Below are positions 138 to 28,290 of a stretch of DNA of 40,606 nucleotides, piece by piece. The stretch comes from Lentisphaerota bacterium (GTDB lineage Bacteria > Verrucomicrobiota > Lentisphaeria > Oligosphaerales > PUNB01): positions 1 to 40,606 of the forward strand of contig PUNB01000062.1 of NCBI GenBank assembly GCA_003552565.1, given 5' to 3'. The position numbers and the translations under genes were made by a program. Positions within the stretch are counted from its first letter, which is position 1. Each line of letters opens with the position of its first letter. The notes beneath the pieces are model-generated. The model was not told the origin of the DNA and made no database searches. It saw only the letters and a list, made by a program, of their open reading frames with translations.

Positions 138-367
138 GTCTCTCCCTCGGGGTATCCGGCGCTTCGCGCCGGCGGTTGGACTTGTATGGGACTTCGTCTC
201 GGTGATCGGTTATCAATCATCCGAGTACCGTAATCGTACACGTACTCGTACACTCAAATCTTCGGGGTCAGAAATAATGACGATTAGCGTGACGAGTATG
301 TGTAAAAGTACGTAGAGTCTCACCCTTCGGGTTTCAGGCGCATCGCGCCGGGAGCGGTTCTTGTATG
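138..367. repeat. Mosaic repeat cluster: core palindromic element (138-195), GTACGAGTAC-type hairpin (about 215-316), second core element (317-367)
   Basis: About 90% identical by eye to 39802-40054 in the same orientation. The core is 'GTCTCTCCCTCGGGGTATCCGGCGCTTCGCGCCGGCGG..GG.CTT.TATG.GAC'. Confidence 0.9.
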
Positions 368-2260: not shown

Positions 2261-2459
2261 GCCTGCACGGGCTTATGTGAGACTTCATATATATAACCTT
2301 GTCCCGAATCCGCCTGAGGCGGATCACAAACCTGATTCCAAAGTCAAAAAACACGAGACAAGGTGCGAGACAAGGTGCGAGACAAGGTTTTTTATGCCGC
2401 AACAGTCTCTACCTCGGGGTGTCAGGCGCTTCGCGCCGTGGGCGAGACTTGTATGAAAC
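2261..2459. repeat. Mosaic repeat cluster: partial core tail, 12-nt-periodic hairpin with an inserted GC hairpin, full core element
   Basis: Collinear with 40030-40222. It contains 3 tandem 12-mers, CGAGACAAGGTG/T, at 2354-2389, and the opposing arm AACCTTGTCCCG at 2295-2306. Confidence 0.9.
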
Positions 2460-4226: not shown

Positions 4227-4763
4227 ATGGCAGAGATCATTAAAGGAAAAGCCTACGTAGTGGGCGACAACATCGACACCGATCAGATTATCCCGGCTCA
4301 ATATCTGAACCTGGTGCCTACCATCCGGGAAGAGTATGACAAACTCGGAAGTTACGCCCTCTCAGGACTGCCGGAGGGCTATCCCCACTTCGTTCCCCCC
4401 GGCCAGACGAAAACCCCCTACAAGGTAATTTTTGCCGGGCGCAATTTCGGCTGCGGCTCCAGCCGGGAACACGCTCCGGTTTGCCTGGGAGCCGCCGGCG
4501 CCCGAGCAGTCGTTGCTGAATCCTTCGCTCGGATTTTTTTCCGCAACTGTATCGCCACCGGTGAATTATATCCGATTGACGCAACCGAACGTCTATGTGA
4601 AATGATCAAAACCGGAGAAGACGTGGAACTGGACCTTGAACAAAACACTCTGAGAATCCCCGCCCGCAACATAACCATTGAAACCCAGCCATTGGGAGAT
4701 GCCCGTCAGGTAATCGAGCACGGCGGGCTGTTTAACCACGCCAGAAAGACCGGTATGATCTAA
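4227..4763 (+). CDS. leuD: 3-isopropylmalate dehydratase small subunit-like protein (short LeuD/HacB type of the aconitase family)
   Basis: 'MAEIIKGKAYVVGDNIDTDQIIPAQYL' and 'AGRNFGCGSSREHAP' are aconitase swivel-domain motifs. I chose the ATG at 4227 (the track ORF begins at 4173) because the homology starts there and it immediately follows the upstream stop at 4225. Confidence 0.85.
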   Translation: MAEIIKGKAYVVGDNIDTDQIIPAQYLNLVPTIREEYDKLGSYALSGLPEGYPHFVPPGQTKTPYKVIFAGRNFGCGSSREHAPVCLGAAGARAVVAESFARIFFRNCIATGELYPIDATERLCEMIKTGEDVELDLEQNTLRIPARNITIETQPLGDARQVIEHGGLFNHARKTGMI

Positions 4764-4819
4764 AGAAAAGAACTGTACCGCGGTTGAGCAAGCGGATATT
4801 GCTAAAGCAGTACGGGACT

Positions 4820-5383
4820 GCGGAAACCTGAAAGCTGAAGGCTGAGGAAAAGCGGGAAACTCGCTGGTCGCAAGTCATAATCCGTATCTTTAATATGTAA
4901 TGCGTAATGGATGGGACGGCGGGGGGAGAGGAATGTATCATAGTGTGTAAGTCGCTGGTCGCGTGTCGCTAGTCATAATTCTTGATCTATAATGCGCAAT
5001 GGATGGAACTACGAGACTGCAATTTTATGAGGCCTGTGGAAGTTTCTATTAAAAATTACACAAGCGTCCCATGGGATGCGTTACTACACTTTGTCTCGCA
5101 CCTTGTCTCGCACTTTGTCCAACTGCCTTCTCAAAACCAAACAAGTACTCGACAAGGCGCGAGACAAAGTGCGAGACTAGGTTTCATTTTATGTGCGTGT
5201 AATGGCCTCACACCCCTTTTCGCATACCCTCTAGTTACGGCTCGACATGCGAGAACGGTGTACGAGTTGGCGCAATCGTAATCCGCTCTCGTCACCCGCT
5301 AATAACGACGAACGAAGCACGATGAACGACGAACCGTGTTTCGAACAAGCCCGACCCTTGGCGCAAGGCCGAAAAGGAACCGG
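4820..5383. repeat. Mosaic repeat cluster with several module types
   Basis: It contains a ~55-bp direct duplication (4861-4915 and 4952-5007), a CGAGACAAGG-type hairpin (5089-5183) and a 'CTTTTCGCATACCCTCTAG' module (5213-5236). An AACGACGAACGAAG module (5301-5342) is identical over 42 nt to 39150-39191. A degenerate core element abuts the ribD stop. Confidence 0.85.
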
Positions 5384-6421
5384 TCAAAAATCTCCCGTCA
5401 CCAGCAGGTCTTCGCCTATCCTCCTTGCGCGCATATTTTTCAGTTTCCAGGCTTGTTCCAGTGATACCGGATCATCCCCGCCCACCGCCGGACGACTGGA
5501 GCGGCCGCCAAGAATACGTGGAGCAATAAAGAACATAGCCTGATCAACTATACCGGCGGCCAAAACCGCCGCCGCTAACTCTCCTCCGCCTTCCACCAAT
5601 AAGGCCGTAATATTCTCTTTCCCCAGGTCTCGCATACAATTCCGCCACTCCTGCTTGTCGCCGGGCGCTATCAGCCGCGGGGGGGTTTCAGGATCCCGCC
5701 ACAATTCCAAGTCTCGACTGAAATTCTGACTGCGAGAACAGATTATCGGCATCGGCTGCCGTTCCCAATCAGCCGGTTCCCTGACTTTCAAACGCGGATT
5801 ATCCCGGCGAACTGTTTCGCCCCCCACCATGATTGCGTCCGCCCAGCGTCGCTGTTTCTGCACCAGGCGCCGGGATTTCTCCCCGCTGATCCATTTCGAA
5901 TCACCACCAACAGTGGCAATCCGTCCGTCAAGAGTCATCGCCAGTTTCAGGATCACAAAAGGGCGTTTCTCGCACACCCAGCAGAAGAAAGCCTCATTCA
6001 ATCTTCGGCATTTCTCTTCCTCCACCCCACACTCCACCTGTAATCCCGCCTCTCGCAGTATACTCAGGCCGCGGCCCGCATGTCGGGGATCCGGATCTTC
6101 ACAGCCCGCCACAACCCGTTTAACTCCGGCGGCCTTAATCGCTTCCGTACAGGGAGAAGTCCGACCGCGAGTGGAACAGGGTTCAAGATTAACATAGAGC
6201 GTCGAACCTTCAGCTCTCTCTCCGGCCTCCTTCAGGGCCGCGATCTCGGCATGACTCTCACCGGCCCGACGATGATATCCCTCTCCAACCGTCGCGCCAT
6301 TCCGCACCGCCACCGCGCCCACCATCGGATTGGGGCTGGTGCGCCCCCAGCCTCGGCGCGCCAGAGACAAAGCCCGCCGCATATAACGACGATCCAACCG
6401 CAATTTTTCCGGCTCCGACAT
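5384..6421 (-). CDS. ribD: Bifunctional riboflavin biosynthesis protein RibD (pyrimidine deaminase / uracil reductase)
   Basis: CDA zinc motifs 'HAEIAAL' and 'PCSTRGRTSPC', followed by a C-terminal RibD reductase domain ('LKLAMTLDGRIA', 'LLVEGGGELA'). Confidence 0.93.
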   Translation of the reverse strand: MSEPEKLRLDRRYMRRALSLARRGWGRTSPNPMVGAVAVRNGATVGEGYHRRAGESHAEIAALKEAGERAEGSTLYVNLEPCSTRGRTSPCTEAIKAAGVKRVVAGCEDPDPRHAGRGLSILREAGLQVECGVEEEKCRRLNEAFFCWVCEKRPFVILKLAMTLDGRIATVGGDSKWISGEKSRRLVQKQRRWADAIMVGGETVRRDNPRLKVREPADWERQPMPIICSRSQNFSRDLELWRDPETPPRLIAPGDKQEWRNCMRDLGKENITALLVEGGGELAAAVLAAGIVDQAMFFIAPRILGGRSSRPAVGGDDPVSLEQAWKLKNMRARRIGEDLLVTGDF

Positions 6422-6512
6422 AAATAATTAGGTTCCTTCGAGATTTGCTTTACAAGTAATCAGCAGCATATTAAATAAGGTTTTGTTTTAACTGACAGGA
6501 GTAAAAAACAGG

Positions 6513-7004
6513 ATGAAAAATTACTACTTAAAGCAGAAAGTATTTTCGATCCGGGACAGTTATAATGTTTATGATGAAAATCAAAACTTGGTTTATTATG
6601 CTTGTGCAAAATTATTTTCTCTGCCGCGGCAATATAAAATATACCGCGGTTCAGATGATTCTTTGCTCTTCACCATGAAACGACGCGTATTCAGTTTCAT
6701 GCCCGCCTATGATCTCTTCGATGCCTCGGGCCGTGAAATCGCAAACATGCGTAAGCAACTGGCTATATTCAGCAACCGGATCGACATCCAATCGGGAGAT
6801 AAATCCTACAACCTCGAAGGAAACATCTGGGCTCACAATTTCACCATTTCAACCCCTGAAAAAACCGTTCTCAATGTCAAGAAAAAAATCATTTCCTGGG
6901 GCGACACCTATGAAATAACCATTGAGGACGATTCTGAAACCGACAAACTGGTCGCGTTTGTGGTTATGATTGACAGCATTTATCACCGACGAAAATCTAA
7001 ATAG
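6513..7004 (+). CDS. YxjI / LURP-one-related (tubby C-terminal-like) family protein
   Basis: 163 aa. The N-terminus 'YYLKQKVFSIRDSYNVYDENQNLVYY' closely resembles that of the Bacillus YxjI family ('LYIKQKVFSLGEKFTV.DE.G..VY'). Confidence 0.7.
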   Translation: MKNYYLKQKVFSIRDSYNVYDENQNLVYYACAKLFSLPRQYKIYRGSDDSLLFTMKRRVFSFMPAYDLFDASGREIANMRKQLAIFSNRIDIQSGDKSYNLEGNIWAHNFTISTPEKTVLNVKKKIISWGDTYEITIEDDSETDKLVAFVVMIDSIYHRRKSK

Positions 7005-7150: not shown

Positions 7151-8452
7151 CTACCCCTCTTTCCGTTCAATGTCAGCCCCCAGCTGAATCAATTTTTGTT
7201 CAATACCTTCGTATCCCCGATCAATAAAATGCACATTTCTGATTATACTCTGACCTTTTGCGCACAGCGCCGCCCCCAGCAACGCGATGCCGGCGCGGAT
7301 ATCCGGACTGCTCAGCTCAATAGGATGCAAAGTCGAGGGACCGGCGACAACCACCCGGTGCGGATCGCAGATGACCGCGTTAGCTCCCATGACGATCAGG
7401 CGGTCAACAAAATACATTCTGCTCTCATAGAGTTTTTCGAAAAACAAAACCGTGCCGCTGACCTGAGTCGCCAGGACAATACAAACGCTCATCAGGTCAG
7501 AAGGAAACTGCGGCCATATCCCGTCATCAATCACCGGAATGCCGCCGGTGAAATCAGGCTGAATCCGCCGCTCCTGTTCCGGACCTACCCGCACCCAGTC
7601 AGTACCGAATTGCAATTCAATGCCGAGCCGGCGAAAAACATGCGCGATCATACGGTAATGTTCGGGATTTATATCCGTCACTGTAACATCACCGCCGGTG
7701 GCCGCGCCAAGAGCGATAAAACTGCCTGCTTCAGTATGATCTGAAACCACTCGACAGTGTGTACCGTTTAATTTTTCAACACCTGTAATACGCAGGTTCG
7801 GCGAACCGTTGCCCTCAATGACAGCTCCCATAGCAACAAGCATTTCTCCTAAAGCCTGAACATGCGGTTCACAGGCGGCGTTGCGAATGATTGTTTCCCC
7901 CTCGGCCAACACCGCCGCCAGCATCAAATGTTCGGTGGCGGTAACGCTGGCCTCAGTCAGAAATATATCCGCTCCCCGCAAGCGGCGGGCGGCGTTAAAA
8001 CGGAAACAGCCGTCAATTTCAATCTCAACCCCCATGGAGGACAATCCATGAAAATGCGAATCCAGACGTCGTTTGCCGATCACATCCCCGCCTGGCGGCG
8101 GCATGGAAACCCGGCCTGAACGATGCAGTAAAGGCGCGGCAAACAGCACACCCGCCCGTAACTGACTGCTTAATGAGCGCGGAATATCCGCGTCCCCAAC
8201 ATCCCGGGCAGTTATAACCGCCCGCCGCGGCTGTCGTTCAACCTCGGCTCCCAGCATCTCCGCCAACTGCAGCATTATCTCCACATCGCCGATAGCGGGA
8301 AGGTTGTCAATAATCACCGGTTGATCAGTCAGAAGAGCGGCCGCCAGCATCGGCAGCGCCGCGTTCTTATTCCCCGAAACAGCAACCTTCCCGCTCAAAG
8401 GCGTCCCCCCTGCAATCTTAAAATATCCGCACGCAGTATTCCTAGCGTTCAT
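7151..8452 (-). CDS. murA: UDP-N-acetylglucosamine 1-carboxyvinyltransferase
   Basis: 433 aa. It has 'GGTPLSGKVAVSGNKNAALPMLAAALL' and the EPSP-synthase-fold repeats, and its length is right for full-length MurA. Confidence 0.93.
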   Translation of the reverse strand: MNARNTACGYFKIAGGTPLSGKVAVSGNKNAALPMLAAALLTDQPVIIDNLPAIGDVEIMLQLAEMLGAEVERQPRRAVITARDVGDADIPRSLSSQLRAGVLFAAPLLHRSGRVSMPPPGGDVIGKRRLDSHFHGLSSMGVEIEIDGCFRFNAARRLRGADIFLTEASVTATEHLMLAAVLAEGETIIRNAACEPHVQALGEMLVAMGAVIEGNGSPNLRITGVEKLNGTHCRVVSDHTEAGSFIALGAATGGDVTVTDINPEHYRMIAHVFRRLGIELQFGTDWVRVGPEQERRIQPDFTGGIPVIDDGIWPQFPSDLMSVCIVLATQVSGTVLFFEKLYESRMYFVDRLIVMGANAVICDPHRVVVAGPSTLHPIELSSPDIRAGIALLGAALCAKGQSIIRNVHFIDRGYEGIEQKLIQLGADIERKEG

Positions 8453-10158: not shown

Positions 10159-10249
10159 AAAAAACCTGACATCCCCCATGTTTTCCGCTTGAGTTCTTTT
10201 CGACCTTCTGTAAAAATGGCGACTTTGTCATTTCTGTCGGATAAGCGGG

Positions 10250-10521
10250 TCGCTTAAGTGTATCCGAGCAAGGGCAGCGGCGAAGAAAGCGATTAAGTGT
10301 ATTTGAACGCCTCTCTCTAAACACTTCAGCATCCTCTTAACCCCACCCTTCGTCTCACCCTTACTTGGTTACGCTTAAACCACTATCTTTATCGGTCAGT
10401 GGGCGACAAACATTCGCGACAAGGTTCTAGACAAGGTTAGGCCTATCCCATGGGATGTTGTGAATTTGCCCTGACACCTGAAAACTGACACCTGAAAACA
10501 CGAATCTCACATAATCCCGAA
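10250..10521. repeat. Mosaic repeat cluster between the kinase 3' end and plsY
   Basis: It contains 'CGATTAAGTGTAT' modules, a half arm 'CGCGACAAGGTTCTAGACAAGGTT', the palindrome 'TCCCATGGGAT' (also at about 5068) and the tandem 'CTGACACCTGAAAA' x2. A truncated core tail 'TCTCACATAA' abuts the kinase stop. Confidence 0.8.
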
Positions 10522-12651
10522 CTAATCCAGATAGTACAAAAAATCATCTATCGCGCTTTCCAGTCCCGGACTCAGTTCCACCGCTTTCCGGCTGTAGGCC
10601 CGGGCCCGCTCCGAATAACCATACCAATCAGCCAACAAAGCCAGCCGGAAGAAATCCTCGGCGGCGTCTTTTTCCGGGTCAGTCCCGAACATCTCGTTTT
10701 GCGGTGCGTCTCTCATCATTAAACGCTTCTCGGCGTAATGCTCGAAAAATTCAAAAAACTGCTCAATCGCCACGGTGTGCCATTGCAGCTCGCGTATATT
10801 GCCTCTGCCATCTGCCGGCCTAAATGCCAAGTGATGCTCATTGGCGAATGGAATAGTTCCGTAAATTCTAGTTCCATTCTCAAGGAGAATCCCTTCTTCT
10901 CTCGCTCTGAACGGAGTACGCATCAGCTGCCGCAAATAGCCGTGCATGCGACTCAAGCGTACAATACGTTCCTTCTCCAGCTCCCGCACACCTTCGGGAT
11001 TGCGCTGCACATAATCACGCAGTTCGTCCTTGTTCGCACCGAAATTCAGGCCTTCAGGATGCGGCCGCTTATCAAGTTCAGGCACGGGAACCCCCGCAGG
11101 TTCGAAATCACCATCTTCCTCGTCATCAACGTCCTCATCAAATAAAGCCCAAGGGTCTTCCTGCTCCTGTGCCTCCACAGGTTCCGACTCCTGCCATAGC
11201 CATGAAGGCTCTACCTCCGCACTCTCTTCACTGTCAAGCTCCTGCTCCGGCAGTTCATCCCATACTTTCGGCTCATCACGCCGAATCGGTCTTTCTTCCG
11301 TCTCGTCCTCTACTCCTTCCGGAGCTTCATCCTCCTCAAGCTCAGGCGCTATTGGTTCTTCTTCCGGAGGGACAGGTTCCGCTTCCTCCTCCACCCTTCC
11401 AGTACCAAAGAGACCGCTGTAAATCCTGTTCATTACCGGCTGTACATGCTCTAGATACCAAGTCTCCTCCTCCCGCGCCCCCCGCCAGAAAACCATCGCT
11501 ACCACAGCCAGAGCCGCCAGAACCGCAGCTCCGGCCGCCAGCCTTATCCTGCTTTGTCTACGCCGCCGCAGATACTCTTTTCGAGCCTTCTCACCCACCG
11601 CTCTTTGACTTAATGAATTACCGCGATTACCTTTCCGCAAACAGCGCCGAAGATAAACCGCGATTCTACTCTTCCTTACCGGCTCCTCGGCCGGCAGTTC
11701 CTGGCGTGTTTCCTCTAGAAAAGATATCACTCGATCACAACTGACTGAACGTTCCTCCGGCTTCAGCGCCAGCATGCGCAGGATAAACTCGTTCAGTTCC
11801 TCACTCACATCCGGACGCTCCTCGATCGGTTCTCCCGCAATCAGCAATTCGGAAACATCGTCCATTTCCATATCAATATCACCGCGTTTGCTGGAAAAAG
11901 GCGGATGTCCTGTCACCGCGAAATATAGACAAGCTCCCAGGCTGAAGATGTCACTTCGGTAATCACCTGCACTCCCCCGTAGCACCTCTGGACTGGCATA
12001 GCGCAAGTCCACATTCGACCCGTCGCCCTCACTATCCAATTCGGCGTCCGGGTCAATTCGGGCCATGCCGAAATCGCTTATCTTGACATCACCTTCAACA
12101 TTGAACAGAATATTGCGTGGATTAAGATCACCATGCACAACCCCTTCCCGATGCGCCGAGGCCATTCCCCGGGCTGTCTGGGCCATGCAATGAAGACAGG
12201 CGGAAATAGATAAAGGATACTCCCCCTTCACTTTGTCATACAAGGATCCGCCGGACATGTATTCCATGGATATGTAGTAGCGCCCTTCGAATTCGCCGCT
12301 GGAGAAAATCGGCACCAAATGAGGACTGTTCAGCGCCGCCACCCTTCTGGTCTGCTGGACCAGCCGCTCGCGCGCCCGCCGGCGCCTGGTCAGCTTCGAG
12401 CTGAAAATCTTGACTGCCACTGTTCGGTCAAGCTTGAGATCATTCGCCCGATAGACCGAGCACAGCTCCCGCTCCTCTATCGGCTCTTCCAACAGATAAT
12501 GACCGAACCGACAAGGTACGATAATCAGATTATCACAACTAGGACAATCCAATTCATCAAAAGGATCAAAATTGGAAACATCAAGCTTCTGCTCACAATG
12601 CGGACAGAATATCTTGACTTGCTTACTTGGTTTTGATTGAAGATCGGACAT
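10522..12651 (-). CDS. Membrane-anchored Ser/Thr protein kinase with N-terminal zinc ribbon and acidic linker
   Basis: The N-terminus has CPHC...CPSC. The Hanks kinase motifs are 'VAVKIF', 'HGDLNPRN', 'DFGMA' and 'ASPE'. A single transmembrane segment ('AAGAAVLAALAVVAMVFW') is followed by a ~130-aa D/E-rich low-complexity region and a ~190-aa C-terminal domain. Confidence 0.85.
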   Translation of the reverse strand: MSDLQSKPSKQVKIFCPHCEQKLDVSNFDPFDELDCPSCDNLIIVPCRFGHYLLEEPIEERELCSVYRANDLKLDRTVAVKIFSSKLTRRRRARERLVQQTRRVAALNSPHLVPIFSSGEFEGRYYISMEYMSGGSLYDKVKGEYPLSISACLHCMAQTARGMASAHREGVVHGDLNPRNILFNVEGDVKISDFGMARIDPDAELDSEGDGSNVDLRYASPEVLRGSAGDYRSDIFSLGACLYFAVTGHPPFSSKRGDIDMEMDDVSELLIAGEPIEERPDVSEELNEFILRMLALKPEERSVSCDRVISFLEETRQELPAEEPVRKSRIAVYLRRCLRKGNRGNSLSQRAVGEKARKEYLRRRRQSRIRLAAGAAVLAALAVVAMVFWRGAREEETWYLEHVQPVMNRIYSGLFGTGRVEEEAEPVPPEEEPIAPELEEDEAPEGVEDETEERPIRRDEPKVWDELPEQELDSEESAEVEPSWLWQESEPVEAQEQEDPWALFDEDVDDEEDGDFEPAGVPVPELDKRPHPEGLNFGANKDELRDYVQRNPEGVRELEKERIVRLSRMHGYLRQLMRTPFRAREEGILLENGTRIYGTIPFANEHHLAFRPADGRGNIRELQWHTVAIEQFFEFFEHYAEKRLMMRDAPQNEMFGTDPEKDAAEDFFRLALLADWYGYSERARAYSRKAVELSPGLESAIDDFLYYLD

Positions 12652-12814: not shown

Positions 12815-13342
12815 TTAACCCGACTGAACTCCCCCGGTTTCATCCAGCGGTTCCGCAGAGGGGTAATTCTCCAGTTCATAATTAATCTCCCTCGAAGGCA
12901 TCCGCAGTCGTGTCAACCGCACTCCTGACTCGGCGAAAAACTGCTCTGCCAGAGTGCTGTGATAATTGGAGAAAACTACGACGGTGCCGATTCCGGCGGC
13001 GATAAGCGCTTTAGCGCAGGCAGTGCAGGGAAGATTGGTTACATACGCAGCGGCGCCTAAAACCGACACTCCATGCCGCGAAGCCTGAGCCAAGGCATTA
13101 ACCTCAGCATGATTAGTCCGTACACAATGATTGTCCACGATTAAGCAACCGACCTCATTGCAATGCGGCGCGCCCGGCAGCGACCCGTTGTAACCGGTGG
13201 CCAGAACATAGCGATCGCGGACAAGCACACAACCACAATGCATCCGCGGACAGGTTGAGCGTTCCGAAGCCAGCATCGCCAGTTTCAGAAAATACTCATC
13301 CCAGCTCGGGCGTTCCCAATCTTTGCTGCTGTTGTGTTTCAT
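12815..13342 (-). CDS. Deoxycytidylate (dCMP) deaminase, ComEB-like
   Basis: 175 aa with the zinc motifs 'HAEVNAL' and 'PCTACAK'. The size and layout match dCMP deaminase. Confidence 0.85.
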   Translation of the reverse strand: MKHNSSKDWERPSWDEYFLKLAMLASERSTCPRMHCGCVLVRDRYVLATGYNGSLPGAPHCNEVGCLIVDNHCVRTNHAEVNALAQASRHGVSVLGAAAYVTNLPCTACAKALIAAGIGTVVVFSNYHSTLAEQFFAESGVRLTRLRMPSREINYELENYPSAEPLDETGGVQSG

Positions 13343-13474
13343 TGCCGACTTATCTTAAGACTGAGCATTTTACATTTAATCATTTAGATTATTCCCCGCC
13401 TTCATAGTTCGCAATATAATGATGCATTACGATGTTAATCTACTTGGAAATCTCTGTTTAACAAGAGCTGCGAG

Positions 13475-14473
13475 ATGAAAAAGAACAGTTTTCCCGGGAA
13501 TGTGGAAATTTTAATTGTCGGCCCCAACCCGGCCTGGCAGAAGACCCTTGTGTTTCGCCGTCTGGTTAAAGGGGAGGTTAATCGCGCCATAGAAAGACAG
13601 GAAGCGGCCGGCGGCAAAGGAATTCATACCCTTTCAGCCTGCCGTCGCCTGACTCAGCACTCCCTGCTTTTCCAGTTTGCCGGCGGCGATGCCGGCAGGC
13701 GCCTGACTGAGGATCTGCAGCAGCGTCAACTCTCTCATCTAACTGTTTCGATTGAAGACGAGACCCGCATCTGCAACACCCTGCTTGATCTCGAAGATAA
13801 TTCGATGACAGAACTGATAGAACCATCGCCCCAGGTCGCAGAAAAAGAAATCCGCCAGGCCCGCCAAAAACTTGCCTCTCTGCTGCCATCCGTCAGCGTC
13901 CTGACGCTCTGCGGCACTATGCCCCGGGGCATAAACACAACTTTCTACAGTAAGCTGATTGAAAACTGCCGGCAACACGCCTGGATCGTGGTCGATTCAT
14001 ATCGAGAGCTTGGTCCAGTCCTGCAGCAAGCGCCGCACATGCTGAAAATAAATCGCCGGGAACTGACTTCTATGACCGGCGACAACAACCCCGATGAAGC
14101 CGCAAAAAGCCTTTTCCAGCAATTCAGCATCCTCTGGATCGCCGTCACCGCCGGAGAAAACAACGCCAGTTTTTACAGCCGCAACAATAAATGGATCTAC
14201 ACACTGCCGAAGATCGAACAGGTCATCAACCCGATCGGCGCGGGCGACACCGCCACCGGCATTCTTGCGGCCGAACTGTCAGAACTCAATCTTTCACCGG
14301 CCTCCTGTACTTCTTACTCATCGAAAAACTATAACTGTTTGTCAGCCGCCTTGGCAACAAGCTTCCGCCGCGCCCTGGCCGCCGCCTCCGCCTCATGCCT
14401 GAACACCCGCCCCGCCGCCTTCGATTTCGAAAAAGCCGCCGAAATTCAGGCACAAATAACAATGAAGAACTGA
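13475..14473 (+). CDS. PfkB-family sugar-phosphate kinase (1-phosphofructokinase / tagatose-6-P kinase-like)
   Basis: 'GGKGIH' N-terminal motif and 'NPIGAGDTATG' C-terminal PfkB signature. The substrate cannot be determined from the sequence. Confidence 0.7.
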   Translation: MKKNSFPGNVEILIVGPNPAWQKTLVFRRLVKGEVNRAIERQEAAGGKGIHTLSACRRLTQHSLLFQFAGGDAGRRLTEDLQQRQLSHLTVSIEDETRICNTLLDLEDNSMTELIEPSPQVAEKEIRQARQKLASLLPSVSVLTLCGTMPRGINTTFYSKLIENCRQHAWIVVDSYRELGPVLQQAPHMLKINRRELTSMTGDNNPDEAAKSLFQQFSILWIAVTAGENNASFYSRNNKWIYTLPKIEQVINPIGAGDTATGILAAELSELNLSPASCTSYSSKNYNCLSAALATSFRRALAAASASCLNTRPAAFDFEKAAEIQAQITMKN

Positions 14474-14492: not shown

Positions 14493-14677
14493 GTTTGCAC
14501 CGCGCGGGCGTTCGCCGCCCTTGTCTCCTCGTTACCGCGCGGATGCTTGGCCCCACTGGCTCTTCGTTGCCGCAGTTACCGCACGGGTGCCCGCCGGCCC
14601 TTAGGTCCCATTACCGCACGGGCACTCCTCACCCTGTTACCGCGCGGGCGTATTATTACGCCTTATTACGCCCGGCC
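14493..14677. repeat. Degenerate ~33-35-bp tandem array (core GTTACCGCGCGGGCG) ending in a GGCGTA-TTAT-TACGCC hairpin
   Basis: Five to six units are visible. It has the same orientation and the same terminal unit ('GTTACCGCGCGGGCGTATTATTACGCC') as the array at 16462-16742. Confidence 0.85.
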
Positions 14678-16461: not shown

Positions 16462-16742
16462 CCGCTCGTTTACCCCGCTGTTATAGCATGGGGGCTTTTT
16501 CCGCCCGAGCGCTCGCCACCCTTGGCCCCTCGTTACCGCGCGACCGTTCGCCGCCCTTGGCCCCTCGTTACCGGGCGGGCGTTCGCCGCCCTTGCCCCAG
16601 TTTCCGCGCAGGCGTTCGCCGCCCTTGGCCCCTCGTTACCGGGCGGGCGTTCGCCGCCCTTGCCCCAGTTTCCACGCGGGCATTCGCCGCCCTTGGTCCA
16701 GTTACCGCGCGGGCGTATTATTACGCCCGGCTTCACGCCCGG
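16462..16742. repeat. Tandem array with alternating 35/33-bp units (68-bp higher-order period)
   Basis: The 'GTTCGCCGCCC' phase markers fall at 16511, 16546, 16581, 16614, 16649 and 16682. Alternating A units end in '...CTTGGCCCCTCGTTACCGGGCGGGC' and B units in '...CTTGCCCCAGTTTCCGCGCAGGC'. All frames are open because of the repeat. Confidence 0.9.
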
Positions 16743-16771: not shown

Positions 16772-18079
16772 TCAAAGCCGGCCGTACCCACACTCATCCA
16801 GACAGCTGCGTTCTTCAGTCTCCGGGTTCATAACCTGGCTCTCACCCAGGCAGGCGGCCATAAGCGCCTCAATATCCAGCGGTTCTTCCTGAGCTTCAAC
16901 TTTTCCAAGGTCAGCCATGGTTAAAGGCCTTTCAGGAGCGAATACAGTGCAGCTGTCAGGTGTTTCCCGACAGGAAACGTCATAGGTGCCGATACTGCGG
17001 GCCAGCGCCACGGTCTCATATTTGTCATTGCCCAGCAGCGGACGGTGAATCGGCAGCTCCGAAGCCTGACTGACCACATGCAGATTCTCCATTGTCTGAC
17101 TGGCCACCTGCCCCAGGTTATCGCCGGTAACCAGTCCCCGAATGTTCTTTCTCCTGGCAATACGACAGGCAATGCGGACCATTAAGCGCCGATAAAGAAT
17201 CGTCCGATAACGCGGATTGCATCTATCCCTAATCTCCTTCTGCGCCGATAGAAGGTTGATGCAGTATAAATTCCCGGGCTTTTGGTAGGTATTCAACAAT
17301 CGCGCCAGGCAGGCCACCTTGGTCACCGTCTCCTCCGGAGTGTATGGAGCGCTGTGAAAAGTGATAAAATCCAGAGGCGCTCCCCGGCGCATCACAGAAT
17401 AAGCCGCCGCCGGTGAGTCAATGCCCCCTGACAACAGACACAATGCCCGGCCGGCACTGCCGCTGGGCAGCCCGCCGGGACCGGGAATATTGGCGAACGA
17501 CACATACGCCGCCTGTTTTCTGACCTCCACCTGCACCAGCAGCTCGGGATTCTTCAGATCCACCTTCAGCCGCGGATAGCGCGGCAGCAGTTTATGGGCG
17601 AAATGCAGCTCGATGTCATGACTTGACATCGGAAAATCAGAGCTTCCGCGCCGGGCCCGCATAGCGTATCTGACACAAGCTGACTCTCCCGCCGCGACGG
17701 CGTATTTCTCATATACTTGGGGAAAGTGCTTCTCAACAGCCTCCTCGATGGCCGCCAAATCCGGCTCTGTCCGCAGGGCCGGAGACACAGAAATCAACCC
17801 GAACACTTTAGCCGCCCTCTCCGGCAGACACCTCACATCCTCAACGCTGAATTCCGCTCCGTGTTCCGGCTTGGGCCGCAGAAAAATACGCCCGGGCTCG
17901 CGCACCGCCTTAAATGGAGTAATGTCCTTGAGCTGACGGTGTATACCCTCCATCAGCATTCGTTCAAACTGACTCCGGTTCATTCCCTTGGTGGCAATCT
18001 CGCCATATCGGCAGAGAATACTGTTGCAGGAAAAAGCCGGCATTTCGTGAGTTGTGTTTATTGTATCAGAAACTGTCAT
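16772..18079 (-). CDS. thiI: tRNA 4-thiouridine synthase ThiI
   Basis: THUMP-type N-terminal half plus the PP-loop 'LLSGGIDSPAAAY'. No rhodanese domain is present. Confidence 0.88.
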   Translation of the reverse strand: MTVSDTINTTHEMPAFSCNSILCRYGEIATKGMNRSQFERMLMEGIHRQLKDITPFKAVREPGRIFLRPKPEHGAEFSVEDVRCLPERAAKVFGLISVSPALRTEPDLAAIEEAVEKHFPQVYEKYAVAAGESACVRYAMRARRGSSDFPMSSHDIELHFAHKLLPRYPRLKVDLKNPELLVQVEVRKQAAYVSFANIPGPGGLPSGSAGRALCLLSGGIDSPAAAYSVMRRGAPLDFITFHSAPYTPEETVTKVACLARLLNTYQKPGNLYCINLLSAQKEIRDRCNPRYRTILYRRLMVRIACRIARRKNIRGLVTGDNLGQVASQTMENLHVVSQASELPIHRPLLGNDKYETVALARSIGTYDVSCRETPDSCTVFAPERPLTMADLGKVEAQEEPLDIEALMAACLGESQVMNPETEERSCLDECGYGRL

Positions 18080-18288
18080 AATAATCTTTTCGCCAGAATT
18101 TCAACGAGTTCAGAGATTTTGAAATATCCAGAATTATGCAGGTTTTGTATCAAAGCCGTCGTTTTTTATAATAGCAGCCACAAAAAAATAACCGCCGACA
18201 ACGGAAAAACAAATACCGCCGCATGAATGGACTTGTATGAATTGGTAATGCGTCAGTGAAAGGTGCGAAATTCGTGTCGGTTGACGAT

Positions 18289-18360
18289 AATCCGCCTCAG
18301 GCGGATCGAGAACGGGCAACGAGTCGCTCGAATCGCCCGTCGTTCTCGCCGCCGTTCTCG
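18289..18360. repeat. Small repeat cluster: CCGCCTCAGGCGG hairpin plus CGTTCTCG-type module
   Basis: 'TCCGCCTCAGGCGGATC' is shared with 2309, 19625, 26731 and 40075. It is followed by the inverted 'GAGAACGGGCAACGAG...CGTCGTTCTCGCCGCCGTTCTCG'. Confidence 0.7.
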
Positions 18361-18542
18361 TTTTCCGGCTGGTTGTTTTCAAACGTTGCTCCTATGACTG
18401 ACGGATTGCATGAATTGTTCATAATAGGAGATTGCGTTTCCCATAATTATGAATTAAATTAATATTTGCGATTGCGGGTGAGTTTTGTCCGCCCCAAGCG
18501 TACATTATTATTAACCTTGAACTAATCTACAGGAGAAAAACC

Positions 18543-19049
18543 ATGCACCGCAAAATGACCAGTAAAGAAAATTTCCGCCGCCTGTTTAAGACTTTAATCT
18601 GCATGTTCGGAATCGCGGCTATCGGCGCCCCGGCTGCAAGAGCCCAGCTGGATGAATTTTACACCGTCGACAGTCAGTCGATAATGGAAGTTCATCCCGC
18701 CTTCCAGGAAGCCATGCAGGAGTATCAGCAGGAAATTCAGCAAATGCAGCAGCAGTTGCAGCAGGCTGACGAAGCACAGCGCCAGATGATGGGCCAAATG
18801 ATGCAGCAGCAACTGCAGCGGCGCGGCGCGGAACTGCAGGAAGAAGCTTTTGATAAGATGCGTCAGGACATTCAGCGCATCGCCGATGAAAAAGGCTACA
18901 GCCCCGTATTCGACATCAATGTCGTTCTGGTCGGCGGTCGAGACATCACCGATGAAATTATGGATGAAATGGACATCGAAGAACCGGGAGCTGAAATGCC
19001 GCAACAGCCCCCCCAGGAAATGCCGGAAGAAATGCCGGTAATGCCCTAA
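18543..19049 (+). CDS. OmpH/Skp-like periplasmic chaperone
   Basis: Signal peptide, a Q/E-rich coiled-coil core, and 'IADEKGYSPVFD' near the C-terminus, as in the OmpH family. Confidence 0.6.
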   Translation: MHRKMTSKENFRRLFKTLICMFGIAAIGAPAARAQLDEFYTVDSQSIMEVHPAFQEAMQEYQQEIQQMQQQLQQADEAQRQMMGQMMQQQLQRRGAELQEEAFDKMRQDIQRIADEKGYSPVFDINVVLVGGRDITDEIMDEMDIEEPGAEMPQQPPQEMPEEMPVMP

Positions 19050-19074
19050 CGCCAATTTCGCGCAAAACAGCCTG

Positions 19075-19640
19075 CGTCAAGGCATCCCTGTCTCTCCTAG
19101 GAAGACCCCATGCGGAAAGGGGTCGAGACCTGAATTTATGTTGCTAAAAACCTTGTCTCGAACCTTGTCCCGAACCGAAATCCGATTGGTTTTAATGTTT
19201 TTATCCGAAATGGAATATGGTTCGGGACAAAGTTGAACTCAAGAACATGCGATATACCTTTTCGCATACCCTCTAGGAAGAGGCTATGCGAAAAGGGTTT
19301 TGTGGAACTCACAAGCTCGAAAGTGACTCTGCGTTCCACGGCCAATTGGATTAAGGCGAAAGATTATGACGAAAGATTAGGGAAAAACGGGTGCGCCCCT
19401 TAATCTTTTGCCCTGATCTTTCGCCTTAATCTCGTTTCTGAACCCTTTTCGCATGGGGTCTAGATAAACAAGCTGTGCGAAAAGGTGTATGTGCTTATGC
19501 ACAAAAAAAATAACTTCAGAACCTCCGACTTCCTCCTTCAGGTTTCAGATTTCTGCCCTGATGAATGACACATGGCCGAATTCGCATGTATTAACCAAGC
19601 TAGGTTTTCTGAACTTTGTCTTGTCCGCCTCAGGCGGATC
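19075..19640. repeat. Mosaic repeat cluster downstream of the Skp-like gene
   Basis: It contains several 'CATGCGAAAAGG / CCTTTTCGCAT' hairpins (about 19085-19125, 19257-19296, 19441-19490), an ACCTTGTC-type hairpin (19149-19233) and an 84-nt hairpin (19348-19431). It also has the 'GCCGAATTCGCATGTAT' module (also at about 7123) and a CCGCCTCAGGCGG hairpin. Confidence 0.85.
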
Positions 19641-19779
19641 TGATGTTCATTCCAACCCGACAAACCTTCCGACTCTCATTCACTTGCTTTTGCTCAGCCA
19701 CCAGTTATGTTTCAGTTTATTAGCTAATTGCTGATTGACTTGCAAAAACAATGATTCTACTCACCAACGGGAGGGAATA

Positions 19780-23182: not shown

Positions 23183-24097
23183 ATGATCAATCATTTTCGT
23201 TTAAAACTGGTGATCTCACTGTCCGCACTGCTGGTTTCATTGCCGGTTCTCGCCTCCATCGGTATTCGGATAAGTTCCGACCGTAATAAGTATATTCAAT
23301 ACGAACCCATTGAAATCACCTTGACCCTGCGCAACAACACCGGCAATCGGTTGAACTTCGGCGAAAGCGGCGCCGAAGGCCAACAAAGAGGTTCTTTGCT
23401 TTTACATGTCACCGACGGCCGCGGCAACGAAGTGCGACAGATAAATTCCCCTGAGAAAATCATCTCCAATCTAGAGTTGGCGGCCGGGGAATCAAAGCAG
23501 TTCACTTTCCCGCTGAATAATTTTTACCATCTGAGCCGGGATACGACTTACACCATATACGCCCAGGCTGGGCATGACCGGCTCAGCCATGATTACCGAT
23601 CAGACAGCCTGCGGTTTGAAGTGCTTAAAGCGCATCCGATCTGGCAGCAGGATTTCGGCATACCCGCGGAAGACGATGACGAAAAAATCACCACCCGTAC
23701 CGCCAGCATCCGTCGGCTCAGCCATGGAAAAGATCAGGTTTACTGCTTTCAGATCGAAGATGACAAATATGTTTATACTGTCAGGCGCATAGCGGATCAC
23801 ATCCACGGAGCCGATCCACGCGGACTGATAGACGGACAGGGGAAAGTGCATATTTTCCTGCGAATTCAATCGAGAATATTTCTCTACCAAGTTTATGATC
23901 ACACCGGCCGCAGAATACAGGAAGCATTCTATACCTTTGAAAATCAAAGCCGCCCACGAATGACGCGCGATTCCAGAACCGGCAACGTGCATGTGCTGGG
24001 AGGGCGACGGGCGCAAAGAAACGAGGATTACATTCTTCCTGAAGACATGGCAAGCGGAGAAAGGCCGGTGGATGTTCCCGTTGTGGAAATACCTTGA
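23183..24097 (+). CDS. Secreted hypothetical protein
   Basis: The ORF has a plausible signal peptide ('LKLVISLSALLVSLPVLAS'). It starts 15 nt after the GT9 stop and uses codons like its neighbours. I recognise no domain. Confidence 0.6.
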   Translation: MINHFRLKLVISLSALLVSLPVLASIGIRISSDRNKYIQYEPIEITLTLRNNTGNRLNFGESGAEGQQRGSLLLHVTDGRGNEVRQINSPEKIISNLELAAGESKQFTFPLNNFYHLSRDTTYTIYAQAGHDRLSHDYRSDSLRFEVLKAHPIWQQDFGIPAEDDDEKITTRTASIRRLSHGKDQVYCFQIEDDKYVYTVRRIADHIHGADPRGLIDGQGKVHIFLRIQSRIFLYQVYDHTGRRIQEAFYTFENQSRPRMTRDSRTGNVHVLGGRRAQRNEDYILPEDMASGERPVDVPVVEIP

Positions 24098-24099
24098 GC

Positions 24100-24580
24100 A
24101 AGGTTAGCAAGAGCCTATGCGAAAAAATGTTTACGGTCTCTACATGCACGAAAAATAAAACTTGGTCGTGTCCGCCTTCAGGCGGCAGTTGCAGCGAGCT
24201 TCCGCCTTCGCCCGCGGGACTACGGCGTGACATGTCAGAGAGCGGGCGCAAGGCCTATGGAGATTCGGCGGATTCCGGGGGCTGAAGCCTCCGAATAGCT
24301 GCCGCCTGAAGGTGGAACTCCGGCATTTTGACGCGCTCATTAAGGTGAAGTTTCATACAAACCCGGCCGCCGGCGCGAAGCGCCGAACAATCCGGAGCTG
24401 GAAGCTCCAGCCACCATCTTAACCGCCGGCGCGAGGCGCTAGATATCACGAGGGAGCGACTTGATGCGGCATATAAAACCTTGTCTCGCACCTTGTCCCG
24501 TGTTTTTTTGATTTTGGAATCAGGTTCGGGACAAGGTTATATATTCGAAGTCTCACATAAGCCCGGCGGTTCTCAGCCGA
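24100..24580. repeat. Mosaic repeat cluster between convergent genes
   Basis: It contains a 'CTATGCGAAAAA...CACGAAAAATAAAACTT' module (compare 27030-27085) and paired CCGCCTTCAGGCGG hairpins. A core doublet split by the hairpin CCGGAGCTGGAAGCTCC (24350-24461) is the reverse complement of 39939-40053. An 'empty-site' 12-nt-periodic hairpin sits at 24477-24539, and a truncated core abuts the glycosylase stop. Confidence 0.9.
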
Positions 24581-27325: not shown

Positions 27326-27341
27326 TAATTAGCTGGATAAA

Positions 27342-28112: not shown

Positions 28113-28151
28113 TGGATTTTCCTTTCTTTTATTCTATTCTGGGTACATAAA

Positions 28152-28290
28152 CTTATGTGAGACCTCGCGGTTTCAGTGTTCAGGTGTCATCTCTGAAACC
28201 CGAAACCTGACTCCAAAAACCATTCAGCAAGTCCTAAACTCAGGGTATCCGGCGCATCGCGCCGGCGATCTGGCTTGTCGGCAGAATCAT
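28152..28290. repeat. Repeat cluster upstream of the DUF4168 gene
   Basis: Core tail 'CTTATGTGAGAC', a GGTTTCAGTGTTCAGGTGTC / CTGAAACC hairpin, and the core centre 'GGGTATCCGGCGCATCGCGCCGGCG'. Confidence 0.8.

Follow-up and report, generated by a model that had tools for sequence, protein, structure and literature searches.

What are the long hairpins, built from tandem 12-nucleotide units, that recur along this stretch of a Lentisphaerota genome? We analyzed the whole stretch, 40,606 nucleotides (the window), for which a preliminary description had reported such hairpins in eight copies. Consistent with that report, 28 sites in the window match the 12-mer CGAGACAAGGTG (≤2 mismatches), all within the reported copies, while shuffled windows hold 2.42 ± 1.64 and none of 100 shuffles reaches 28. 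TRF agrees, placing period-12 arrays at 2354-2388, 5087-5119, 5151-5177, 19149-19176, 26693-26725 and 40123-40155. The family, here 12a, comprises six two-armed hairpins (c1 to c6) and two one-armed arrays, every copy intergenic within the window.

2295 to 2389, no strand assigned: 12a hairpin c1, left arm of one unit (2295-2306), right arm of three units (2354-2389), then TTTTTAT
5087 to 5183, no strand assigned: 12a hairpin c2, three plus three units, 25-nt loop
19149 to 19234, no strand assigned: 12a hairpin c3, left arm of two units, right arm GGTTCGGGACAAAGT(T)
24477 to 24539, no strand assigned: 12a hairpin c4, two plus one units
27082 to 27163, no strand assigned: 12a hairpin c5, two plus three units
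40062 to 40156, no strand assigned: 12a hairpin c6, one plus three units, a near-copy of c1
10415 to 10438, forward strand: one-armed 12a array, two direct units
26693 to 26760, reverse strand: one-armed 12a array, three plus one direct units

The 12-nt unit consists of a core, GACAAGGT, and a linker, K-C-G-R. Units abut without spacers at period 12 in short head-to-tail arrays, and two such arrays in inverted orientation make up a fold-back hairpin. The unit itself is not self-complementary and carries no GTAG or CGTC tag. From c1 to c6 the arms hold 1|3, 3|3, 2|1, 2|1, 2|3 and 1|3 units; unit number thus varies between copies, as had been reported, but the second arm therefore sometimes has fewer than two units (c3 and c4) and not always two or three. 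Overall, the window has ~1 array cluster per 5 kb and ~0.7 motifs per kb.

All six two-armed copies fold into long hairpins with stems of 12-36 bp and z-scores of -2.9 to -8.3 relative to dinucleotide shuffles (c1, -29.9 kcal/mol, z -2.9; c2, -45.1 kcal/mol, z -8.3; c3, z -4.4; c4, z -5.1; c5, z -4.7; c6, z -3.8), and both strands fold about equally well. Neither one-armed array folds: the one at 10415-10438, which lies 84 nt 3' of a Ser/Thr kinase gene and for which no inverted partner was found, has a z-score of +0.2, and the one at 26693-26760, which is split by the mini-palindrome TACGCCTCAGGCGGATC at 26729-26745, has a z-score of +1.0. Loops of the two-armed copies span 25-55 nt, as described, but are not A/T-rich throughout, with the c1 and c6 loops holding a G+C-rich 17-nt palindrome (at 2309-2325 in c1).

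Stems made of tandem units had been predicted to pair in several registers, and the minimum-energy and centroid structures of c5 (27080-27165 folded) indeed differ by a 12-nt register. The left inner unit of c5 reads CACCTAGTCTGG and its right-arm units CAGACTAAGTG and CGAGACTAGATG, which confirms the CTAGTC/GACTAG noted earlier in both arms at 27083-27160. Here CTAGTC pairs with GACTAA as a compensated double change, and a second double change, GTCTGG/CAGAC, is likewise compensated. The copy at 19161 has C-G in place of T-A. Compensatory drift nonetheless holds for part of the set only: c1 (sense strand) and c6 carry a C.A mismatch in the stem, and the three mismatched or wobble pairs of c2 are resolved when pairing shifts by one unit. 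Across 10 hairpins analyzed with RNAalifold, 6 of 16 pairs show a double change and the covariation term is +0.44, which gives no net support for covariation between the arms. A unit-level permutation test returned p = 0.02, a value we do not rely on, as differing registers and related copies make the test ill-posed.

We considered whether the hairpins are a structured ncRNA gene, one option in the preliminary description, or a regulatory RNA acting in cis. Although their stable folds and the compensated changes in c5 and at 19161 would fit such an RNA, we regard this as highly improbable: both strands fold alike, arms, unit number and loop sequence and length all vary, one-armed and direct-only arrays are common, covariation is unsupported, the surroundings are mosaic, and a search for a promoter signal found none. 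Rfam 15 gave 0 matches at the gathering threshold; in E-value mode (E ≤ 5) it returned only generic miRNA-hairpin models, scoring 28-32 bits where the thresholds are 85-86, which we judged spurious. A weak Rfam cobalamin match lies inside a gene, and the window contains no tRNA or tmRNA genes.

The 12a hairpin is not a stand-alone RNA gene but a component of a dense mosaic. Its partners are heptamer arrays, a ~60-nt GC-hairpin element (the B element) and the 17-nt mini-palindrome. In composites, hairpins travel with a conserved head and the B element; in the composite that carries c1 the order is head GGGCTTATGTGAGACTTC, 8 nt, hairpin, TTATGCCGCAAC, and B element (AGTCTC...GGCGCTTCGCGCC...).

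2269 to 2459, no strand assigned: ~190-nt composite carrying c1 (self-BLAST, alignment, motif coordinates)
24347 to 24564, reverse orientation: paralogue of this composite (self-BLAST, alignment)
39939 to 40228: paralogue of this composite (self-BLAST, alignment)
27208 to 27267, forward strand: full B element with head GAAGTCTCACATAAGCCC, G+C hairpin and tail CCCCGAGGGAGAAAC
39185 to 39243, forward strand: full B element
40480 to 40537, forward strand: full B element
40171 to 40228, reverse strand: full B element
2404 to 2459, reverse strand: full B element
2269 to 2286: B head alone
24547 to 24564: B head alone
28151 to 28166: B head alone
39802 to 39817: B head alone

Hairpins c1, c4 (reversed) and c6 are copies of this one composite and not, as had been assumed, independent hairpins. 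Whole 12-mers, and the mini-palindrome (22 nt in this comparison), are present in some of the paralogues and missing from others; c4 lacks the mini-palindrome and one unit. Folding of the B element was no better than that of shuffles in four of five copies. A hammerhead-like core (CUGAUA...GAAAC) within the element was considered and dropped, since it lacks G8, differs among copies and draws no Rfam match.

We observed that at least two sister families absent from the preliminary list, including one with the 12-nt unit GTGTACGAGTAC (12b) and one with the 13-nt unit GATTAAGGCGAAA, build the same type of hairpin.

26846 to 26927, no strand assigned: 12b hairpin, (GTGTACGAGTAC)x2, loop, (GTACTCGTACAC)x2 (TRF)
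40318 to 40400: 12b copy
222 to 320: 12b copy
39848 to 39935: 12b copy
19345 to 19436, no strand assigned: 13-mer hairpin, GATTAAGGCGAAA units against CCTTAATCTTTCG (TRF), fold -44 kcal/mol

The 12b hairpins fold at -44 to -46 kcal/mol. The 13-mer family also occurs in the loci L013, L030 and L193, and a relative at 65% identity (L198) has inverted octamer arrays. Across the window and the PVC loci we compared 130 tandem arrays with periods of 11-14. An inverted partner of 18 nt lies no more than 250 nt away for 52 of them, compared with 0 in a reverse-only control, and at least eight unit families are involved.

Genomic position bears on a second alternative. Within the window, which carries housekeeping genes, the 12a, 12b and 13-mer hairpins lie where neighboring genes run in the same direction or converge, and the five divergent spacers contain none of them. 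The repeats accumulate in spacers holding gene 3' ends. Copy c1 starts 39 nt past the stop codon of an aldolase gene (best homologue 66% identical, with adjoining genes that differ downstream), and c2 and c4 each sit between convergent genes. The hairpins might exist to terminate transcription (bidirectionally) or to protect the 3' ends of mRNAs, with an RNA hairpin and U-tract under selection. Every two-armed window copy is arranged 5'-ACCTTGTC...GACAAGGT-3' and the stem therefore ends in GGTT; stems often have T's after and A's before them (GGTTTTTTAT at 2389; on the reverse strand at 19149, 24477 and 27082). Canonical terminators are not enriched in the window, so other structures may serve in their place. 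By the standards of intrinsic terminators the stems qualify, and a T-run lies on the plausible strand, that of the upstream gene, in 4-5 of six two-armed copies.

Other features make selection for termination quite unlikely as the reason for these hairpins. Loops of 25-55 nt, compared with 3-8 nt, are atypical of intrinsic terminators, and a terminator scan therefore calls none of the sites. The T-run of the copy at 19149 is on the wrong strand for both adjoining genes, the sense strand of the copy at 2295 has C.A mismatches, one-armed and direct-only arrays cannot end transcription, and a divergent arrangement in Moanabacter follows no T-run logic. Where a hairpin with a T-run does lie behind a gene, its transcribed form probably terminates the transcript or stabilizes its 3' end, which we regard as a side effect and not as what maintains the family.

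Both unit orientations occur within single elements of the window, and many independent assemblies contain the elements. These two observations run against a decayed coding repeat, or an error of assembly, as the source of the repeats. Some database matches to unit dimers are coding (an enolase-superfamily gene of Chloroflexi, LemA and a phage repeat protein) and short ORFs overlap some copies, as a coding origin might predict; yet the coding matches are single dimers in unrelated taxa, and the ORFs are 87-106 aa long and have no family match. We consider a coding or artefactual origin refuted for practical purposes.

More generally, genome-collection matches outside the PVC group proved to be coding coincidences. 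The 4 loci from a viral-contig scan were all coding repeats, and plasmid and phage BLAST searches gave no match to the repeats. A metagenome scan with a B-head 15-mer, a poor query, yielded 120 loci, most of them chance single matches; only L093, L139 and L167 are true relatives.

Within the PVC group, 12-mer arrays are present in MAGs of Kiritimatiellia, Lentisphaeria and Verrucomicrobiota, in direct, convergent or divergent layouts. Copies sharing a loop with those of the window occur in other metagenome assemblies (L047, L139 and L050). Hairpin c6 is 94% identical to L047 over 116 nt, and the L047 contig terminates inside a 12-mer array; c3 is 83% identical to L050 over 78 nt, and the AACCGAAATCC with which its loop begins also trails arrays in L002, L029, L048, L050 and L053. 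By BLAST, c2 shares 88-95% identity with L022, L030, L063 and L065, and its centre, GTCCAA...TCGAC, is the same as in tight hairpins of the PVC MAG T3Sed10. A Lentisphaerae bin has an array inside a >300-nt repeat whose paralogues hold 11, 3, 3 and 2 units, and in Kiritimatiellia loci one type of unit grades in phase into another. The window arrangement is convergent and that of Moanabacter, which we take to be a member of Verrucomicrobia, is divergent; loops and flanks are unrelated.

Occurrence of the same core in three PVC classes or phyla suggests sequence-specific recognition rather than neutral drift, though the search pattern biases this comparison and accounts for part of the apparent conservation of the core. 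The 12-mer could then be the site of a conserved PVC DNA- or RNA-binding protein, with arrays as multi-site platforms offering about one site per helical turn and the hairpin secondary. Consistent with such sites, the core is kept as the linker varies, it recurs across the group in all three layouts between unrelated loops and flanks, and many arrays are direct-only (47 of 91 loose clusters and 31 of 61 strict 12a arrays). In direct arrays 15-45 nt past a stop codon, the core is on the sense strand in ~12 cases versus 3, cases that are not independent. However, at least eight unrelated unit families share this construction, and each would therefore need its own protein. Units that morph in phase, sites behind genes and not at promoters (0/5 divergent window spacers) and a density of about one cluster per 5 kb also fit poorly. 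The preliminary description had offered a protein-binding array as one option; recurrence of the core keeps that idea alive, but its use of an architecture common to unrelated units leads us to judge it improbable.

We instead favor, at slightly better than even chances, a reading in which the hairpins belong to a REP/REPIN/BIME/NIME-type family of intergenic repeats, non-coding, non-autonomous and shaped by slippage, in an uncultured PVC-group (Kiritimatiellia/Lentisphaerae-like) bacterium. In its favor, the elements are intergenic and multi-copy, form strong hairpins on either strand and share one architecture across unrelated families; against it, we found no target-site duplication (TSD) or empty site, the link to a Y1 transposase is weak, and the units are non-palindromic. 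That about half of 12a arrays are direct-only is unexplained by a purely hairpin-based model. Under the favored reading, replication slippage would change unit number, the arms would stay complementary through intrastrand template switching inside the hairpin or because pairing is under selection, and a trans-acting enzyme recognizing hairpin DNA would disperse the copies. The sole candidate type seen is a Y1 (HUH) transposase resembling RAYT or TIRYT, whose gene in relatives of this genome has palindromic flanks with the same kind of tandemly duplicated half-site.

The 12-mer element is clearly akin to REP/REPIN/BIME clusters. It is likewise short, extragenic and dense behind genes, it occurs as singletons, inverted pairs, tandem clusters and mosaics with other motifs, and it is accompanied by a single-copy Y1 gene with its own inverted palindrome flanks. 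Inverted copies with a short spacer, forming a hairpin, extragenic and numerous, define a REPIN, and the window has six such two-armed copies in 40.6 kb. REP, REPIN and BIME elements with RAYT form REPtrons, and TIR families with TIRYT form TIRtrons (Bertels & Rainey 2011; Ton-Hoang 2012; Di Nocera 2013). Unlike in RAYT systems, the flanks of the Y1 gene here do not carry the dispersed repeat (~40 kb examined; other Y1 genes may exist). Described REP families, which occur in the PVC group, comprise singletons, inverted dimers and tandem clusters of a 20-40-nt unit that is itself an imperfect palindrome or stem-loop with a terminal GTAG or CGTC (PMC3733652). The unit here is a non-palindromic 12-mer (or 13-, 8- or 7-mer), and a stem forms only between two arrays. 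A literature search found no description of the unit dimers, and the construction of arms from short tandem arrays of varying unit number appears undescribed, in line with the preliminary description, which knew of no REP, MITE or sRNA class so built; the kinship with REP elements is clear nonetheless.

Other known systems share parts of the architecture. NIME and pneumococcal BOX elements are modular mosaics of small intergenic repeats, and BOX, which folds stably, has a variable tandem number of boxB between boxA and boxC. The 12-mer elements resemble them in their intergenic mosaics and variable tandem modules but have no sequence similarity, belong to another phylum and place the repeated module in both arms, whereas in BOX it is 45 nt long and internal to the structure. 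Foldback (FB) transposons of Drosophila and other eukaryotes are kilobase-sized, some with coding sequence; they too have long inverted arms made up of short tandem sub-repeats, in numbers that differ from copy to copy, a parallel in architecture only. Inverted pairs of Neisseria uptake sequences (DUS) double as terminators. An inverted pair of 10-12-nt motifs behind genes, some T-runs and ~0.7 motifs per kb recall DUS and their density, but tandem arrays, long loops, absence from coding sequence and several unrelated motif families do not. A CRISPR array was rejected, as units abut at period 12 in place of 24-48-nt repeats with unique spacers, and so were plasmid or phage iterons and centromere repeats, given the housekeeping genes and the lack of plasmid or phage matches.

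Like MITEs, the elements are small, non-coding, multi-copy and intergenic with inverted ends; unlike them, they have many one-armed copies and no TSD or parent IS with matching ends was found. No consistent direct repeat was present at the borders of c1, c4, c6 and L047, borders that are blurred by neighboring mosaic modules. As a possible link between the flank of the RAYT-like Y1 gene and the composite, TTGCGGC / ATAAGCC was considered and rejected as a split target site (17 TTGCGGC matches versus 11.5 expected, which is no enrichment; no empty site found). In 66 array-carrying loci we found no autonomous IS with matching ends; ORF clustering recovered sulfatases, oxidoreductases and ABC proteins and no recurrent transposase, and tblastn with two Y1 proteins found no Y1 gene. 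An IS4-like element near some Moanabacter arrays was rejected as a partner, its ends being unrelated to the units. The proposal of a mobile non-autonomous hairpin is the best supported of the earlier ones (intergenic, multi-copy, mosaic, paralogues differing by whole units and by a nested mini-palindrome, related copies in other assemblies), though a TSD, an empty site and a partner transposase were not found.

If the REP/REPIN-type reading is correct, the architectures known for such elements widen to stems made of arrays of tiny non-palindromic units, which gives slippable hairpins of variable length, and their phylum range extends into a superphylum that has been little studied and whose members are for the most part known only from metagenomes. 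The mosaics break short-read assemblies, inflate intergenic length and create spurious ORFs (87-106 aa), and the arrays could be VNTR-type loci for strain typing.

The window also encodes the Y1 gene mentioned above.

34524 to 35285: RAYT-like Y1 gene, Pfam Y1_Tnp 31 bits (cut-off 23), NCBIfam REP_Tyr_transpos 54.8 bits

Its HUH and tyrosine motifs are both intact. The gene is flanked by an inverted palindrome, TTGCGGCTAAGCC / GGCTTATCCGCAA, that is unlike the 12-mers and not dispersed within the ~40-kb window. A bolder, rather unlikely proposal is that PVC bacteria (Kiritimatiellia, Lentisphaeria and some Verrucomicrobiota) carry an undescribed class of fold-back REPIN analogues with a 7-13-nt non-palindromic unit, in which repeated Y1/HUH cleavage and rejoining at a hairpin half-site would build the arrays, inverted arrays being the transposable or amplifiable form. 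Such an origin is suggested by traces in relatives of the window genome, where an inverted palindrome flanks the Y1 homologues and, in four of six genomes, its half farther from the gene is present as a tandem duplicate; these half-site duplications beside Y1 genes offer a concrete, testable route to the origin of the arrays.

The 12-nt unit CGAGACAAGGTG (≤2 mismatches) matched 28 times in the 40.6-kb window against a mean of 2.4 in dinucleotide-preserving shuffles, and none of the 100 shuffles attained that number. A single chance match lies in the aldolase gene; the remainder all fall at the sites named in the preliminary description, where Tandem Repeats Finder also called period-12 arrays. 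As that description had claimed, arrays of this family (12a) form hairpins, with six two-armed copies folding into stems of 12-36 bp (z-scores below are against dinucleotide shuffles).

2295-2389, two-armed 12a hairpin (z = -2.9)
5087-5183, two-armed 12a hairpin (z = -8.3)
19149-19234, two-armed 12a hairpin (z = -4.4)
24477-24539, two-armed 12a hairpin (z = -5.1)
27082-27163, two-armed 12a hairpin (z = -4.7)
40062-40156, two-armed 12a hairpin (z = -3.8)
10415-10438, one-armed 12a copy, no fold
26693-26760, one-armed 12a copy, no fold

Every two-armed copy in the window reads 5'-ACCTTGTC...GACAAGGT-3', so that the stem ends in GGTT. Consistent with the earlier proposal that these stems can pair in several registers, the minimum-energy and centroid structures of 27080-27165 differ in register by one unit, and three mismatches or wobbles in 5087-5183, spaced 12 nt apart, become Watson-Crick pairs when an arm is shifted by one unit. 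Compensation between the arms is only partial overall. The CTAGTC/GACTAG pair reported at 27083-27160 was correct, and the same hairpin (27082-27163) holds a second compensated change, TCTGG with CAGAC; copies 2295 and 40063 each carry an uncompensated C.A mismatch. Statistically supported arm-arm covariation, the support initially sought, was not obtained: although 6 of the 16 pairs showed double changes, RNAalifold gave a covariation energy term of +0.44 for the 12a family, in which variation between arms is too low to make a covariation test meaningful. A unit permutation test gave p = 0.02, a value confounded by register differences and the kinship of the copies. The arms may be subject to homogenisation.

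The eight copies are not all independent. Copies 2295, 40063 and (reversed) 24477 are paralogues of a single ~190-nt composite that runs head, 8 nt, hairpin, TTATGCCGCAAC and B, a ~60-nt element. There are thus fewer independent entities than the count of copies suggests, and the hairpin is a module, not a free-standing gene. In the alignment these paralogues are exactly one 12-mer apart, and a 22-nt mini-palindrome segment is present or absent. Unit number differs between copies of the feature, whose arms are arrays of 12-nt units, and the units may be prone to slippage. The 17-nt mini-palindrome itself directly follows a ACCTTGTC-type unit on its 3' side in four of five copies. It is present in the composites at 2295 and 40063 and at L047 (L numbers denote loci fetched from other genomes or metagenomes) and absent from 24477 and L139, and so behaves as a nested element that is separately inserted or deleted.

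The window is ordinary chromosome with genes for class II aldolase, thymidylate kinase, RibD, EPSP synthase, GpsA, PlsY, a Ser/Thr kinase, ThiI, TrpS or TyrS, FolK, an SNF2 helicase and others, and no tRNA genes. The 12-mer clusters are intergenic throughout (overlapping ORFs of 87-106 aa are unsupported) and lie in unusually long spacers (0.35 to >1.7 kb), which self-comparison of the window found to be densely filled with other small repeats. The repeat families of the window are as follows.

26846-26927, 40318-40400, 222-320, 39848-39935: 12b hairpin, (GTGTACGAGTAC)2, loop, (GTACTCGTACAC)2, -32 to -46 kcal/mol
19345-19436: 13-mer hairpin (GATTAAGGCGAAA / CCTTAATCTTTCG), -44 kcal/mol
27208-27267, 39185-39243, 40480-40537 (+): element B (~60 nt), head GAAGTCTCACATAAGCCC, hairpin GGCGC-NNC-GCGCC, tail CCCCGAGGGAGAGACTT
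2404-2459, 40171-40228, 39939-40053, 137-195, 316-365 (-): element B
2309-2325, 18291-18307, 19624-19640, 26729-26745, 40076-40092: 17-nt mini-palindrome TCCGCCTSAGGCGGATC
10471-10499, 27176-27205, 40454-40477, 28172-28204: heptamer arrays, first group
5304-5334, 27265-27302, 39153-39183: heptamer arrays, second group
40553-40587: heptamer array, third group
19240-19300, 19090-19130, 19445-19500, 26650-26675, 27030-27060, 5205-5235: small palindromes on CCTTTTCGCATACCCTCTAG / CTAGACCCCATGCGAAAAGG, flanking 12a and 13-mer hairpins
16501-16716, 14499-14662: 35-nt unit array and copies

The second fold-back family, 12b, has two hexamer-based GTGTACGAGTAC units in each arm and was not detected in any other genome fetched. 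The 13-mer fold-back family is common to the window, a soda-lake MAG of the PVC superphylum group and a Kiritimatiellia MAG (L013 205-239; L030 181-265; L193 3078-3160). About ten B heads occur in the window, several where mosaic DNA meets unique DNA, and lone heads mark the mosaic edge adjoining genes. B has two subtypes with matching head and tail ends (AAGTCTC/GAGACTT versus GTGTTTC/GAAACAC), along with hybrids; it has no Rfam match and its folds are not significant. The heptamer arrays are of CCTGAAA, AACGACG/AACATCG and TGAATTT types, the first two each joined to a particular B-head variant. A further small palindrome family is built on CCTTTTCGCATACCC. Separately, a G+C-rich 35-nt unit (CCGCGCGGGCGTTCGCCGCCCTTGGCCCCTCGTTA) forms a tandem array of 6.3 copies with a GGGCGTATTATTACGCCC hairpin at its end, and dispersed copies lie behind a PfkB-family kinase gene.

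Hairpins of the 12a, 12b and 13-mer families occupy co-directional or convergent spacers (2256-2654, 4763-5384, 10179-10522, 19049-19735, 24097-24581, 26654-27342 and 38907 onward). None of the window's five divergent spacers (6421-6513, 13342-13475, ~25200, 30135-30439 and 18079-18543) contains one, the last holding a mini-palindrome only. Such gene-end hairpins might terminate transcripts or stabilise their 3' ends, and in four to five of the six two-armed copies Ts follow the stem on the strand of the upstream gene. Canonical terminators are not enriched in the window, which makes an effect of this kind plausible for some copies. That it explains the family as a whole is made less likely by loops of 25-55 nt, by the T-run of copy 19149 on the wrong strand and by the numerous direct-only arrays. 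A position at gene ends would be expected equally of tolerated selfish insertions, a pattern known from REP and BIME elements, and any influence on transcripts may be a side effect. Among terminator-like calls in the window, the strongest is a perfect 18-bp hairpin at 28457-28496 (-), AATCAACTCATGCCGCGC CACA GCGCGGCATGAGTTGATT, behind a methyltransferase gene.

A scan for two adjacent units, using one genome per species, identified at least 66 loci against a chance expectation of ~4 matches. Matches in Chloroflexi, Altiarchaeota, delta-proteobacterial and Spirochaetaceae MAGs and in Streptomyces were set aside as coding coincidences (in an enolase-superfamily gene, LemA and a Streptomyces match that looks coding) or lone matches, and those on viral contigs as coding repeats of one phage protein. 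The other loci belong to Kiritimatiellia, Lentisphaeria, 'PVC group' and Verrucomicrobiota MAGs, including 'Candidatus Moanabacter', which we take to be Verrucomicrobia; a few short contigs binned elsewhere derive from the same soda-lake samples and have probably been mis-binned. In some copies the similarity to the window extends beyond the units. L047 matches 40039-40154 at 94% identity over 116 nt, loop and head included, and L050 matches 19149-19225 at 83%. The T3Sed10 MAG has tight hairpins whose centre is that of copy 5087, and the head-plus-hairpin composite is present at L139 and L167, from other metagenomes. The nearest homologue of the window's aldolase is only 66% identical.

In a Lentisphaerae bin, the array lies within a conserved >300-nt repeat whose four copies contain 11, 3, 3 and 2 units (L019 1414-1546, L020 2807-2842, L040 7318-7353 and L066 843-866), a VNTR-like variation among paralogues. 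At L047 the contig terminates within a 12-copy array of 14-nt (7+7) units adjoining the hairpin composite (2423-2589), indicating that such arrays break assemblies. A more distant relative, L198 (aldolase identity 65%), has inverted octamer arrays (CTCACGCA x6.4; 5287-5403) and further long hairpins in spacers surrounding the aldolase gene.

Across PVC loci the 12-mers are arranged as direct arrays (2-11 units), as convergent arms like those in the window, or as divergent arms with 80-115-nt loops, Moanabacter being an example. Kiritimatiellia loci contain 12-mer units that give way, still in phase, to GATTAAGAT and GATAAGGAT units, suggesting that unit families grade into one another. We examined all period-11-14 tandem arrays in the window and PVC loci (n = 130) for an inverted partner, defined as 18 nt of reverse complement with ≤3 mismatches within 250 nt. 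Fifty-two arrays had one (30 of the 61 12a arrays and 22 of the remaining 69), spanning at least eight unit families, while the reversed, uncomplemented control gave 0. The fold-back arrangement is thus the conserved feature and a property of the class rather than of one 12-mer.

A structured RNA, one of the original suggestions, is disfavored, with no Rfam family matched and both strands of the hairpins folding about alike. The arrays are not CRISPRs because their units lack spacers, and plasmid or phage DNA was ruled out by the absence of matches in plasmid and phage collections. Unit dimers had no match in the literature searched. No recurrent transposase was found beside the arrays, and the ends of an IS4-like element close to some Moanabacter arrays are unrelated to the units. 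A cobalamin-riboswitch match at 8079-8359 (+), inside the EPSP synthase coding region, is weak and probably spurious (score 19.5 bits, threshold 31.5 bits; E = 0.58).

The description that fits the feature best is that of a fold-back member within a system of REP/REPIN/BIME-like mosaic repeats, in a Kiritimatiellia/Lentisphaerae-like bacterium. Elements of this kind are well known and the feature is a variant of them, though its construction, from non-palindromic units that form a stem only between arrays, appears undescribed.

Repeats of this system may be mobilised in trans. The window encodes one protein resembling the transposases of REPtrons and TIRtrons (RAYT/TIRYT).

34524-35285 (+), RAYT/TIRYT-like Y1 (HUH) transposase gene, 253 aa, motifs intact
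34380-34414 and 35328-35362, inverted palindromes flanking the Y1 gene, TTGCGGCTAAGCC ... GGCTTATCCGCAA

The protein scores 31 bits with Pfam Y1_Tnp (cut-off 23) and 54.8 bits with the NCBIfam REP-associated tyrosine transposase model, under the cut-off of 80. It contains the HUH-type motif NHTHVV and LRYIDLNMVRA, and shows weak similarity to the structure of ISDra2 TnpA. Kiritimatiellia-type MAGs encode homologues with 52-78% amino acid identity, their gene neighbourhoods being unrelated; the best homologues are Kiritimatiellia by name. The gene and its inverted small-palindrome flanks are conserved in every case; at L196 the palindrome is CGACGCTTATCGTCG, with the stem covaried and the loop TAAG kept. 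This organization fits the TIRtron, a term of Di Nocera et al. (PMC3733652). The flank palindrome is not dispersed and differs from the 12-mers, so the gene and its flanks do not form a REPtron, and no 12-mer array locus contains a Y1 gene. A link between the Y1 transposase and the 12-mer arrays is therefore doubtful.

The flanks themselves resemble the fold-back arrays. Tandem duplication of the gene-distal half-palindrome, together with its flank, was seen in four of six genomes.

L193: 13-mers x3 upstream, 14-mers x2 downstream
L194: 15-mers x3 upstream, 33-mers x2 and 12-mers x2 downstream
L195: 12-mers x2 upstream
L191: 7-mers x2.3 upstream

The layout is that of the hairpins, with inverted tandem units on both sides and the Y1 gene as the 'loop', and by analogy suggests that Y1-type cleavage and rejoining could make such arrays. 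L194 has a second Y1 gene, which is likewise preceded by a duplicated 33-mer.
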